Assembly: GCA_964016885.1 (NCBI GenBank)
Contig: OZ024741.1
Coordinates: 197,532,001 to 197,596,000, forward strand
Reading direction: 5' to 3'
Source: Eledone cirrhosa
Taxonomy: Eukaryota
DNA length: 64,000 bases
Shown here: positions 40,693 to 54,024 of the stretch, piece by piece
Layout of the letters: the number at the start of each line of letters is the position of its first letter
Numbering within the stretch: the first letter of the stretch is position 1
Position numbers and translations under genes: made by a program
Notes under the pieces: model-generated
What the model was told of the DNA's origin: nothing
The model's database searches: none
The model's input: the letters and a program-made list of their open reading frames with translations, nothing else

Positions 40693-41371
40693 TGGAATAG
40701 AATGAAACGAAATTTCATTTCTCACTCTTACGACGACACTTACTTAAATGTAAGTATGTATGTATGCGTACATACATATATATATACAGACGTACAGTAG
40801 TGTGTATATATATATACATACATGCACACATATATATATGCACGTATCGGTTTACCGAACATTTATTATAATGCTCGGTTTGTTTGTTTGTAAACAAACA
40901 AACAGCCCGAATTACGCCGTACAGTGTTTAGGCAACCACGTCACCTTTTTGTTCAACACTGACACAGGAACGATGTACTAGTTTCAAGTTTATTAGCTAT
41001 CATCAGCATCGTATACCTTCCTGCCAGATGGTTGAACGTCTGAAAGTATATACTTTCCTTATGCATATTAACGTCTGAGCAGCTTAATTTGCATATCGAG
41101 TGAGTTCAGACGGCCAGGCACACCGAAAACGATAAATGGAATACAATGAAACGAAATTTCATTTCTCACTCTTAGTACGGCACTTACTTAAATGTAAGTA
41201 TGTATGTATGTATACGTACATGCATATATGTATACAGACGTACAGTAGTATGTATATATATACATTCATGCACACATATATATATGCACGTATCCTGTGT
41301 CAGTGTTGAACAAAAAGGTGACGTGGTTGCCTAAACACTGTACGGCGTAATTCGGGATGTTTGTTTGTTTA
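40693..41371 (-). mobile_element. Family F retrozyme-like element: ~444-bp monomer in partial tandem, plus an inverted segment
   Basis: 40693.. repeats at 41137..; 41294-41371 is the reverse complement of ~40890-40968. Confidence 0.8.
40970..41012 (-). ncRNA. Type I hammerhead ribozyme (family F)
   Basis: Minus: ACGATG-CTGATGA-tAGCTaataAACTt-GAAA-CTAG-TA^CATCGT. Confidence 0.85.
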
Positions 41372-42075
41372 CGCTCTATCTCAAAATTATTTTTGAAAAG
41401 CATTAGAAATGCGCAACCGGTAAAACTTAAAACCAAAACTGAATACTAAACAATACTATTACTAATTCTCACTTATTCCTAATTAAACTATTTTTCACTG
41501 TGAACAATTTGTTAGCATTTTCTATTCCGTTTACCAATATATATATGTATATATATATATATATATATATATATATATATATATATATATATATATATAT
41601 ATATATATATATATATATATATATATATATATATATATTTATATATAATATATATAATATATATTATATATATATATATAATATATATAATATATATAAT
41701 ATATATAATATATATATATTATATATATATTTTATATATATATATATTTTATATTATATATATACATATATTATATATATATGTTATATAAATATATATT
41801 ATATATATATACATATATATATATTATATATATATATATTATATATATATATTATATATATTATATATACATACATACACACACACACACATACACACAC
41901 ACACACTCACACACACACATATATATATATATATATATATATATGTATGAATGTATATATAGTGTATTTTGCAATACACTGTATGCTTAATTGAAAGCAT
42001 TTTGAAGACCATACGCTATTGTTTTAAAATAGTGACAATGACACTTATTTACATTTTCAGCAAACAGGGGAGATA

Positions 42076-42120
42076 AACTGACAGAGTTCTGTTTCGTACT
42101 TTTTAGTACTTATCAAAGCT
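42076..42120 (-). ncRNA. Hammerhead ribozyme with U3-A8 core (TTGATAA)
   Basis: Minus: AGCT-TTGATAA-GTACT-aaa-AGTAC-like stem II-GAAA-CAG-aact-CTG-TC^AGTT. Confidence 0.78.
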
Positions 42121-42396
42121 CACTATTCCTCCTGTTTGTTGAAAATTTAAATAAGTGACATTGTCACTATTTTAAAACAATAGCATATGGTCTTCAAAAT
42201 GCTTTTAATTAAGCATACAGTGTATTTCAAAATACACTGTATATACATTCATATATATATCGCTATTTCAGAGCACCAATTCTAAGTTTCAATTCCTGCT
42301 GGACCGGCGACCGGTCTGTATAATCAGTTCCTGATTATTATTGGAATTTTATAAGAACCAAACACACATAATTTTCAGCAAACAGGAGGAGTAGTG

Positions 42397-42443
42397 AGCT
42401 TTGATAAGTGCCAAAAAAAGTACTAAACAGAGACCTGTCAGCT
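42397..42443 (+). ncRNA. Second TTGATAA-core hammerhead, GAAA mutated to TAAA
   Basis: AGCT-TTGATAA-GTGC..GTAC-TAAA-CAG-agac-CTG-TC^AGCT. Confidence 0.68.
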
Positions 42444-43084
42444 TTATCTCCCCTTTTTGCTGAAAATTTAAATAAGTGCCATTGTCACTATTTTAAAACA
42501 ATAGCGTATGGTCTTCAAAATGCTTTTAATTAAGCATACACTGTATTGCATAATACACTATATATACATTCATATATATATCGCTATTTCAGAGCACCAA
42601 TTCTAATTTTCATACACACACACACACACACACACACACACACACACACACACACACACACACACACACACACACACACATATATATATATATAATTATA
42701 GTGGAAAATAGAAGTTGCAGCTATGGCAGCATCTCTCGAAATAACAATCCTCAGAAGATTGCACAAGCACTCGATAAGATGATATCGGTAAATCGATAAA
42801 TTAAATCTACAACAACAGTAGGTAAAGAATGCCACAACAGCGACAACAGCCACTACAACAACGAAAATACCAACAAGTTAATATATATAGACACATTGTG
42901 TCTACTCTCGGAATTTTACAAAACCTTACCTATTGAGTACGCTGAGATGCAACCGGTACTAGCAGGGAAACTTATGCTAATCCTGTCAACTTAGATATAT
43001 ATATATATATATATATATATATATATAAGGCTCTGATACCACCAACACCTTAAACACAGAGCTGGGATATCTAAGAACTGACTA

Positions 43085-43142
43085 ACTGCCTGATGAGGTC
43101 ATAGCCATTCACTGGCTATCATCGAAATATATATATAGCAGT
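43085..43142 (+). ncRNA. Type I hammerhead ribozyme
   Basis: ACTGC-CTGATGA-GGTcATAGCCA-ttcac-TGGCTATcATC-GAAA-tatatata-TA^GCAGT followed by AATAAA. Confidence 0.9.
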
Positions 43143-43600
43143 AAATAAAGGATTATGAGTTCATGCAATTGATTTATATTTCGTCACTACACACACACAC
43201 ACACACATATATATATATATATATATATATATATATATATATATATATATATATATATATATATATATATTATCTTACAATTATCTTACAATATATATAT
43301 ATTATCTTACAATTTCTTTTTCAACATATATTATATACGTATTTGTGGTCACACATACACTGATATGCTTGCCCTCACATATGTACTTACGCACACATTT
43401 TTTCACTATACACATGCATTTGTACATACACACATATGTACATTTGTGAGTGAATATACACACATTTATACACATACCCAAACTATATTTCCTTATTTTA
43501 TTTTTATATATCTCTTGCATTACTTTTATTTATATATTCTTTTGCCCGTTAAACTTTTGCCTTTCTTGAAGAGATTTTTCAAATATTTCACTATGTTTTA

Positions 43601-51750: not shown

Positions 51751-52106
51751 AATCATTAAGTACGAAAACATTTTACCTTTATATGCTGAATTAATTCTCA
51801 TTATGTATAAATGAACTCTCCCGAACGGGATATTTTTCCTTCTCTAGAATCTTATATTTTCAAGATTGTTTCTTAAAATCATATGATAGCAGAAACAAGC
51901 ATGGATCTATTTCGATACATGAGACCAGTTTCTAATTACGGGAATTGTTTTAATCACAGACCTTTTACATTATTTTTCTAGCATATCTTATAGGCCAAAA
52001 GGAGTTACTTGTTTTTCGGCCATTATTTAGAAGCGTTATTCTGTTCCTATATGTATATGAATACTCCTAGATGTCTAGAGAAATTACATTTTTTCGGTCA
52101 TTATTC

Positions 52107-52293
52107 GGTGGATTGGCAGTATCGGTAGAGGGTCAGACGCCATGCTTTCCGGCATAGTTACGTCCCTTTACGATCTGAGTTCAAATCCCGCCAAGGTTAA
52201 CCTTACCTTTCATCCTCACGGGGTCGATAAAATAAAGTACCAGTAATGTACTGAGTAATTGCTGGCCTTGTGCCAAAAGTAGAAACAATTATT
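52107..52293 (+). mobile_element. SINE, full length
   Basis: A/B box, core and tail. Confidence 0.9.
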
Positions 52294-53371
52294 TAGAATC
52301 TTCAATCTATTCCTTTACGAATATGAATACTCCTAGATGTTTTTGAGAATAATTGTAAACGGAGTAGATAGATCCAAACCGGACAGCCAAACCGGACAAA
52401 CAAACCGAACAGCCTTATTAAAAACTTGCAACTAGTTATCAGGAGATGTAAAGGATTTATAAACACTACAAACCTTTTTGGAAGGTTCTTGAAATTGATT
52501 GCTTTACAAAATAAACAATGAAATATAACGAAATTGGTTATTTGTATTGATATTTTTGACGTCTTCATTCAACAATAACATAGGAAACTAACTTTTAACA
52601 CTTCAAAATCAGTATTAACAGGCTCCATTTATTCTTAGCCACCAGTCCAAGGAGGTGTTTATAGATATCTTTAGATTGGCTAATATATATATATATTAAT
52701 ATGCATATACATATATATTAATATATATATATATATATATATATATATATATATATATATATATATATATATATATATATATATATGTGTGTGTGTGTGT
52801 GTGTGTGTGTGTATTAAAAAAGGAAAAGAATGACTTCACTTGTAGTTCTAAACAATTTAATTTAATTTTATAATATTATAATTTTACAATTTTGTTTGGT
52901 AGATCAAGTAAACTATTTGTTAACTTCGGTGGGGAGATTGTTTAAGATTCTTGGTTAACTTTCCTGGAGAACTTTCGTGCCCGAAGTTAACAAAGAACTT
53001 ACTAGATCTACCAAACAAAATTGTAAAATAATATCATAAAATAAAATTAAATTGTTTAGACTACAAGTGAAGTTATTCTTCTCCTTTTTCAAAATATACA
53101 TAACTGTACCAAGGATTTCACACATTTTCCAATATATATATATATATGTATATATATATATATATATAAGTATGTATACGCACATACATATATGTATACA
53201 GACGTACAGTAGTATGTATATATATATACATACATGCACACATATATATATGTGCGTATGGATTCTCCGAACATTCATTATAATGCTCGGTGTGTTTGTA
53301 AACAAACATCCCGTATTAAGCCGTAGTATCTAGCAACCATCGTTGCTTGTTTGTTCAACACTGATAAAAGA

Positions 53372-53414
53372 ACGCTGTACTAGTTTCAAGCTTATTAGCT
53401 ATCGTCAGCAACGT
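53372..53414 (-). ncRNA. Type I hammerhead ribozyme (family F)
   Basis: Minus: ACGTTG-CTGACGA-tAGCTaataAGCTt-GAAA-CTAG-TA^CAGCGT. Confidence 0.88.
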
Positions 53415-53698
53415 ATACCTTCCTGCCAGATGGTTGAACGTCTGAAAGTATATACTTTCCTTATGCATATTAACGGCTGAGTAGCCCAATTTGCATATCG
53501 AGTGGGTTAATCGGCCGGGTTCACCGAAAACGATAAACTAAGAGTGGGAAATGAAATTTCGTTTCATTTTTTCCGTTTATCGTTTTCGGTGAACCCGGCC
53601 GATTAACCCACTCGATATGCAAATTGGGCTACTCAGCCGTTAATATGCATAAGGAAAGTATATACTTTCAGACGTTCAATCATCTGGCAGGAAGGTAT

Positions 53699-53749
53699 AC
53701 GCTGCTGACGATAGCTAATAAGCTTGAAACTTTGAAACTAGTACAGCGT
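53699..53749 (+). ncRNA. Family F hammerhead with an 8-nt duplication around GAAA
   Basis: ACGCTG-CTGACGA-tAGCTaataAGCTt-GAAACTTT-GAAACTAG-TA^CAGCGT. Confidence 0.8.
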
Positions 53750-54024
53750 TCCTTTGTCAGTGTTGAACAAACGAGCAACGATGGTTGCTAGATACTACGG
53801 CTTAATACGGGATGTTTGTTTACAAACACACCGAGCATTATAATAAATGTTCGGTGAATCCATACGTACATATATATATGTGTGCATGTATGTATATATA
53901 TATACATACTAATGTACGTCTGTATACATATATGTATGTGCGTATACATACTTATATTTAAGTAACAGCCGTACTAAGAGTGGGAAATGAAATTTCGTTT
54001 CATTTTTTCCGTTTATATATATAT

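Follow-up and report, generated by a model that had tools for sequence, protein, structure and literature searches.

How does a repeat of about 440 nt that carries no protein come to lie in a genome in copies longer than itself? The question is raised by family F, a short, protein-free, hammerhead-bearing mobile sequence in the genome of the octopus Eledone cirrhosa, analyzed here within a stretch of 64,000 nt (GCA_964016885.1, contig OZ024741.1, positions 197,532,001 to 197,596,000 of the forward strand; hereafter, the window). We put at roughly 65% the probability that F is a non-autonomous derivative of a Penelope-like element (PLE) that works like a non-long-terminal-repeat (non-LTR) retrozyme and is copied from a head-to-tail multimer.

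Anatomy of the Unit

Family F occurs in the window as two long loci and one solo tail (Table 1), with no additional copies there retrieved by nhmmer. Numbered from the start of the tail (position 1), the unit spans 444 nt at locus 1 (41174-40731, minus strand) and 436 nt at locus 2 (53539-53974, plus strand), with a GC content of 0.33-0.37. Alignment of the two units gave 382 matches, 45 substitutions, and 8 gaps, a divergence of ~10%. Read on the minus strand, which is the ribozyme sense, locus 1 comprises inverted positions 206-285, then positions 327-444, a full unit, a tail of 38-42 nt, and (TA)n. From 41294 to ~40690, the 444-nt unit and ~160 repeated nt amount to 1.36 units, and the 80-nt inverted piece (41293-41372) matches 40969-40890 at 79/80 positions. 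Locus 2 consists of inverted positions 37-417 followed by a full unit from position -1, a 42-nt tail, and (TA)n. Its terminal repeat is identical at 44/44 positions (53537-53580 and 53973-54016), and its 373-nt inverted arm (53538-53166) differs from the main copy by nine substitutions and one 8-nt indel; no editing-like bias was apparent by eye among these nine differences. Locus 3 is a solo tail (63304-63262, minus strand) with TA runs on both sides. The tail motif was matched five times in the window and in none of 100 shuffles. This anatomy bears out the initial annotation, which had described a ~430-445-nt monomer, terminally redundant at two loci, in the form of ~1.35 tandem monomers plus an inverted piece at 40693-41371, one monomer with a ~42-bp repeat and a ~370-bp inverted arm at 53168-54015, and a bare 3′ tip at ~63266-63305.

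Both long loci thus display a partial tandem, with redundancy like that of pseudo-long terminal repeats (pLTRs), and an inverted, 5′-truncated copy at the 5′ end. Each sense-strand copy carries one ribozyme, and the two ribozymes of locus 2 lie on opposite strands; a direct tandem of two units, each with a ribozyme, was found at 0/3 loci. The unit possesses no terminal inverted repeats.

At locus 1, a further 165 nt (41373-41537, plus strand) separate the inverted piece from the next (TA)n. The end of this segment weakly resembles the F tail end, and a second RNA was possibly copied in the same insertion. As the end of a related family, the segment is a weak lead only, given that a score as high as its 25 was reached in 24 of 5147 other windows and in two unrelated flanks among 161 TA flanks.

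Table 1. Positions of family F features and of the coding PLE within the window
Feature	Positions	Strand	Remarks
Locus 1, (TA)n target run	40646..40693		3′ end
Locus 1, terminal tail	40688..40730	-	Unit positions 1-38/42; last 4-6 nt indistinguishable from TA run
Locus 1, full unit	40731..41174	-	Non-coding, 444 nt
Locus 1, hammerhead	40958..41028	-	C3 at 41006; predicted cut between 40976 and 40975
Locus 1, upstream partial unit	41175..41294	-	Unit positions 327-444; no ribozyme
Locus 1, inverted piece	41293..41372	+	Unit positions 206-285; begins 6 nt past predicted cut
Coding Hydra-clade PLE	43272..47417	+	Frameshifted; RWK, DKT, and CxCX5C motifs; pLTRs ~470 bp
Locus 2, inverted arm	53166..53538	-	Unit positions 37-417; tail-less 3′ end at (TA)n
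Locus 2, arm hammerhead	within 53166..53538	-	C3 at 53408; predicted cut between 53378 and 53377
Locus 2, main unit	53537..53974	+	436 nt from 53539, plus 2 nt of junction microhomology
Locus 2, predicted structured domain	53539..53615	+	Unit positions 1-77; encloses tailed 3′ end (position 42)
Locus 2, main hammerhead	53683..53761	+	C3 at 53705; predicted cut between 53743 and 53744
Locus 2, terminal tail	53975..54016	+	Followed by (TA)n
Locus 3, solo tail	63262..63304	-	Starts where the locus 2 main copy starts

Tailed and Tail-less 3′ Ends

The 3′ ends of F fall into two classes, tailed and tail-less. Three tailed ends agree to within 4 nt: those of loci 2 and 3 read TTTAT, with one extra A at locus 3, and that of locus 1 is either 4 nt shorter or altered by one substitution. 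The fourth outward 3′ end, belonging to the locus 2 arm, meets (TA)n ~60 nt earlier, at unit position 417-419, such that the main copy of this locus carries a tail and its arm has none. The earlier claim that all ends stop at the same position against (TA)n therefore held for the three tailed ends and failed for the arm. Four of the five outward ends adjoin (TA)n, the exception being the locus 1 inverted piece, and a 5′ boundary at position 1 is common to loci 2 and 3. A common ATACTTATA end motif was also considered; it preceded TA runs in four cases, including an internal one, recurred 18 times in looser form, and was set aside as weak.

A Type I Hammerhead Ribozyme

By sequence and predicted fold, the F ribozyme is a type I hammerhead. 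The conserved core (CUGANGA, GAAA, and UH) is intact in 3/3 full copies, and a type I descriptor retrieved 15 motifs in the window, whereas 30 shuffles averaged 0.3 and never exceeded 1. Helix I comprises 6 bp together with an internal loop and a distal helix. Its stem at locus 1 reads ACGATG/CATCGT, and that of the locus 2 main copy reads ACGCTG/CAGCGT, confirming a compensatory swap noticed at the outset; the locus 2 arm adds a third state, ACGTTG/CAGCGT, and one pair is consequently A-U, C-G, or U·G across the three copies. The predicted pairing probability of helix I is 0.94-0.99 at locus 2 and 0.47-0.69 at locus 1. Helix II consists of 4 bp and a 4-nt loop, with a U·U at its base in place of the usual G-C closing pair, and is weak at locus 1, where it contains one C·A mismatch. 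Helix III is a 6-nt palindrome that would pair only between two copies (duplex, -4.8 kcal/mol), and the cofold of locus 1 forms this duplex. The main copy of locus 2 has an 8-nt duplication that yields a 3-bp helix III; here the minimum-energy and centroid structures both adopt the three-helix fold.

Dimer-dependent hammerhead designs are described as usual in animals (PMC4209133). By our own count from File S2 of PMC8557442, 14 of 25 Hydra-clade families combine a U·U-closed helix II with a palindromic helix III. The axolotl ribozyme HHR_Amex2, which also has a U·U at the base of helix II, is reported to cleave weakly alone and well as a dimer (PMC7229834). By analogy, F would likely self-cleave, but slowly.

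A Non-Coding Unit with a Predicted RNA Fold

No conserved open reading frame (ORF) was detected in the F unit, in which the longest stop-free stretches are 70-78 codons, and no ORF with both a reverse transcriptase (RT) and, at its C terminus, a GIY-YIG endonuclease is present. Nor was a tRNA or Pol III head apparent by eye, with early T runs and no clean B box relative to the consensus. Predicted self-pairing is strong: z-scores of -5.0 and -9.2 were obtained for the two units, with 0/100 shuffles as low in each case, and removal of the TA-rich part left values of -3.0 and -5.8, below all 60 shuffles. A consensus fold of the two sequences contains 107 identical, 7 one-sided, 4 two-sided, and 0 broken pairs. 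Its energy of -112.7 compares with null means of -81 and -89 when the substitutions are repositioned at random (as strong in 0/60 and 0/60); with local repositioning and the TA-rich part removed, the null was as strong in 0/100 and 2/100. The substitutions between the loci thus appear to spare a shared predicted fold across ~10% divergence. Within the structured domain at the start of the unit, a predicted helix between positions 4-10 and 71-77 carries an A-U/G-C compensatory pair between loci. As this helix spans the tailed 3′ end at position 42, the template would have continued beyond the start site, as either a multimer or a circle.

A Probable Non-Autonomous PLE Copied from a Multimer

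Partial tandems, inverted 5′ arms, a tail confined to one arm, solo tails, and (TA)n flanks are standard PLE anatomy. The account of PLEs in PMC8557442 includes partial tandems, an inverted 5′-truncated copy, and a tail of 30-40 bp that is often restricted to a single end, and gives (TA)n as the target of the Hydra clade. The window offers an internal control: four other head-to-head ribozyme pairs, aligned at 24283-24688, 33262-33620, 34284-34520, and 47436-48456, likewise combine a tailed with a tail-less arm, solo tails recur at 21100-21180 and 48499-48582, and a coding Hydra-clade PLE is present. Every testable feature of a non-autonomous PLE was found in F, with the exception of a matched partner.

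The tail-body junction is the same at two loci that are ~10% diverged, which argues against F being the plain pLTR of a coding element. At both loci, the sequence past the upstream 3′ end returns to the ribozyme within ~130 nt; in the coding Hydra-clade element of the window, the corresponding sequence (43780-43893) leads to a start codon at 43893. Together with the fold-sparing divergence, this return to the ribozyme suggests that the short unit itself has propagated. At both long loci, moreover, the arm stops upstream of the main-copy start, by 41 nt and by 15-17 nt modulo the unit, and these positions are as twin priming on one multimer predicts (the model is described secondarily in PMC2246262). 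Locus 2 is equally compatible with fold-back across a 36-nt loop.

We envisage that the ~440-nt unit retains cis signals (the hammerhead and a structured start domain) and no ORF, and that a source array elsewhere in the genome would be transcribed head to tail. The RT and GIY-YIG endonuclease of a coding PLE, for which the Hydra clade is the likeliest origin, would cut a (TA)n run, and cDNA would be primed inside the RNA, either at position 42 of the next unit (tailed ends) or near position 417 (tail-less ends). We infer these two preferred priming sites from the F ends and from PMC11167929, in which the cDNA of an Anolis PLE is described as starting at two internal stem-loop sites, the stretch between them being the tail. 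Copying back across the unit boundary would create the terminal redundancy, and priming from both sides of the cut, or fold-back, with joining at 2 nt of microhomology could give the head-to-head arms. A cDNA halting at the tail start would leave a solo tail. The ribozyme probably acts as a dimer and is slow to cut, which would allow uncleaved multimers to survive as templates and would render a circle optional.

Several results weigh against this proposal. The antisense strand folds about as far below its shuffles as the sense strand, and the number of two-sided compensatory pairs did not exceed the null (11/60 and 6/60; 17 and 20 of 100), a test of the same pairs that gave 11/500 being inflated by deriving the structure from the same alignment. 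The fold comparison rests on two independent units. Rfam returned no match at the gathering score across the window, and scans of 0.9-1 kb at E up to 10 gave low-complexity or hairpin matches, mostly to microRNA models and all below threshold, with no hammerhead; scans of 100 nt retrieved Hammerhead_HH9 at 25.2 and 18.9 bits (E 1e-4 and 0.011), against a gathering score of 52. The only octopus Hydra family listed in PMC8557442 lacks the U·U pair, and as this pair is found both in Hydra-clade families and in the axolotl retrozyme ribozyme, it does not fix the clade. No sequence common to F and the coding PLE was detected in the window (best local scores, 18-26), and no array with two direct-repeat ribozymes was seen there. 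Finally, in the four other head-to-head ribozyme pairs of the window, a single sequence is covered by both arms, such that two RNAs or fold-back would be needed; single-template twin priming is therefore not the rule in this window.

Circle, pLTR, or DNA-Level Origin

The initial annotation had read the greater-than-unit length and fixed 3′ end as reverse transcription around a circular or multimeric template from a defined start. A more-than-unit template and a defined start are upheld, but a circle is not indicated by these two observations, because both are general PLE features in the account of PMC8557442; fixed ends are also explained, with no need of a circle, by the internal RT starts reported in vitro for an Anolis PLE (PMC11167929). 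A circular template is possible, and the model is one already in print: copying around a circle by reverse transcription has been proposed for PLE tandems (PMC4209133) and for retrozymes (PMC7229834); if true of F, it would not be new. The present data do not favor a circle or a linear multimer decisively. Because re-ligation at GUA^CA would restore the genomic sequence, junction reads at this site would not separate a circle from uncleaved RNA.

In its classical form, the circular retrozyme route would start from two-ribozyme arrays that release monomers, which a host ligase circularizes and a PLE RT copies for more than one round from a fixed start. Size, GC content, the canonical type I ribozyme, and strong self-pairing all fit the expressed circles of coral, mussel, and axolotl described in PMC7229834, and the tails of locus 2 are identical. 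Furthermore, starting from the tailed site, a linear monomer that had been cleaved would yield no more than ~280 nt of cDNA, lacking the ribozyme, and full copies would thus need a circle or an uncleaved multimer. We nevertheless regard this route as unlikely for F. With no direct two-ribozyme tandem at any locus in the window, no unit-length RNA could be released from any of them. A circle predicts identical repeats, yet those of locus 1 differ at 9/158 positions, compared with 1/80 in its inverted piece (p = 0.17, not significant) and 9/373 between the locus 2 arms (p = 0.067). A circle also has no 5′ end, yet the 5′ boundary recurs at position 1 at loci 2 and 3, while that of the inverted piece of locus 1 lies 6 nt past the predicted cut (~7 in 444 by chance), both of these being post hoc observations on single cases. 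Other pairs in the window were copied through uncleaved ribozymes. For the Anolis PLE, a linear RNA template is reported to suffice and ribozyme mutants to insert normally in vitro, cleavage being dispensable there (PMC11167929), and 8 of 9 Xenopus retrozyme dimers are described as uncleaved in vitro (10.64898/2026.07.22.740005). A transcript of locus 2 would be a 373-bp hairpin.

On the copies in the window, it is improbable that F represents no more than the pLTR at the 3′ end of some coding PLE located elsewhere and that its copies are 5′-truncated insertions. The pLTR of the coding element is of similar length (~470 bp), and every structural feature of F is typical of PLE ends as set out in PMC8557442, but the coding partial tandem leads into an ORF where that of F leads back to the ribozyme at both loci, and the short unit diverges in a fold-sparing manner. 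A DNA-level origin, whether as a small DNA transposon or as a dead fragment that slippage or hairpin repair at (TA)n had duplicated and inverted, would suit a window rich in microsatellites and palindromes and the like folding of the two strands, but is highly improbable in view of the intact ribozyme cores, the fixed 3′ and variable 5′ ends, the lack of terminal inverted repeats on the unit, and the excess of hammerhead motifs over shuffles.

A bolder joint reading, which we consider doubtful, would make F an active circular-RNA retrozyme of octopus and a minimal trans substrate of a Hydra-clade PLE, with junctions that expose the PLE reaction. Two internal starts would lie ~60 nt apart, the covarying 77-nt domain would be the RT-binding element, both sides of the cut would be primed on one dimeric RNA, and the locus 1 cDNA would have run off a ribozyme-cut 5′ end.

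Coding PLE and Genomic Setting

The coding element is assigned to the Hydra clade by motifs named in PMC8557442 and by 1144 homologues of ~700 aa; Pfam matched 0/3 of the Hydra ORF pieces, and the N terminus resembles Hydra-1_Obim by eye. Coding PLE sequence lies in the window at 43272-47417 and at 63453-63998. The ribozyme-like motifs in the pLTRs of the former, at 43612 and 47272, both read CCGACGA instead of CUGANGA, and helices I and III can be drawn in two registers. The 3′ untranslated region of the copy at 43272-47417 is 1.4 kb long and microsatellite-rich. When six short F motifs were compared with the supplement of PMC8557442, four were absent from it and two matched unrelated places. 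Searches of phage, bacterial, and archaeal genomes gave no match to F.

Other ribozyme-bearing and (TA)n-bounded families are present in the window. A possible fifth head-to-head pair was read, unaligned, at 18092-18215. Within the pair at 24283-24688, a 96-nt piece of an abundant SINE-like repeat (SINE, short interspersed nuclear element) lies between the arms and suggests a template switch during insertion. Related solo tails between TA runs occur at 21100-21180 and 48499-48582 and align with PLE tails, and unique TA-bounded pieces at 22389-22439, 37689-37744, 39426-39498, 17784-17839, and 17947-18002 look like solo ends of other families. At 63385-64000, an inverted tail belonging to the family at 33.3 and 34.5 kb is joined head to head with a 5′-truncated Hydra endonuclease fragment, which ties this tail type to a coding element; 80 nt rich in TA separate this site from the F solo tail. 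An interpretation of 63385-63460 as a 5′ untranslated region fused to the endonuclease was dropped, as an inverted tail fits better. Further ribozyme families with a U·U-closed helix II are found at 17864-17932, 18092-18215, 19042-19093, and 33797-34062, and in many copies of the U·U-closed families the start lies 9-16 nt upstream of the core, immediately ahead of the 5′ strand of helix I. Head-to-head (TA)n families at 21298-21629, 24841-25099, 54736-54896, 41964-42602, and 52887-53023 have no ribozyme by the descriptor.

The window is microsatellite-rich. An exon of the potassium channel gene KCNK13 lies at 16154-16498 (93% identical to Octopus bimaculoides; next best, 59%), and the repeats downstream of it are probably in a KCNK13 intron or flank. 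An abundant ~200-bp repeat, which resembles a cephalopod tRNA-derived SINE, is present at 9115-9306, 30677-30870, 35107-35503 (in tandem), 52106-52293, 55151-55344, 56337-56530, and 57527-57720, among others. A recent tandem duplication is located at 55151-57720 (1384 bp at 99.3%, period 1186 bp). Decayed RT and endonuclease fragments of the long interspersed nuclear element (LINE) type occupy 3594-5868, 11023-13170, 35706-37301, and 59399-62483.

Comparison with Known Systems

Non-autonomous, ribozyme-bearing PLE derivatives are already known from many animals, and F adds a host and a family. No octopus family of the F type appeared in the titles or abstract openings of the literature searched, a scope that left out most subscription journals. 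The family bears on how the tandems, inversions, and tails of PLEs form and on the role of the ribozyme. A natural substrate of 440 nt with two mapped starts and a covarying start domain would allow a simple linear-versus-circle test.

Animal retrozymes have been argued to derive from PLE pLTRs, and 24 of 57 Xenopus retrozyme families are reported to match known elements, nearly all of them PLEs (10.64898/2026.07.22.740005). Like the metazoan non-LTR retrozymes described in PMC7229834, F combines a short non-coding unit (150-450 bp in that description) and a type I hammerhead with low GC, strong self-pairing, and coding PLEs in the same genome. Unlike them, it shows no direct two-ribozyme tandem in the window, for which reason it is not filed as a non-LTR retrozyme; it is known here from DNA alone, forms dispersed (TA)n insertions with inverted arms and tails, and resides in an octopus. 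The non-autonomous Chlamys elements of the MRC1 type, as presented in PMC8557442, are likewise short PLE derivatives with pLTRs and head-to-tail copies, but they belong to green algae, mostly lack canonical ribozymes, and match an autonomous family at the 3′ end, a match not found for F in the window.

Closer parallels are offered by two groups of coding PLEs. With the Hydra-clade elements covered by PMC8557442, F shares (TA)n targets, a ribozyme situated close to the 3′ end, partial tandems, inverted 5′ copies, and a tail at one end, as well as the U·U helix II and palindromic helix III of the 14 families counted above. It differs in the absence of an RT/endonuclease ORF, in a helix III reduced to 6 nt, and in the distance from the predicted cut to the 3′ end, which is 273-287 nt in F versus ~90 nt in the coding Hydra-clade element of the window. 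The Anolis element PAc, a member of the Poseidon clade, is autonomous, starts within its ORF, and has a tail of 30-40 nt, compared with ~60 nt between the ends of F (PMC11167929). In that account, both strands of the PAc target are cut and extended. F resembles PAc in having two 3′ end classes that define the tail, an AT-rich target, and, on the reading favored here, a start inside a stem-loop with RNA continuing downstream and priming on both strands.

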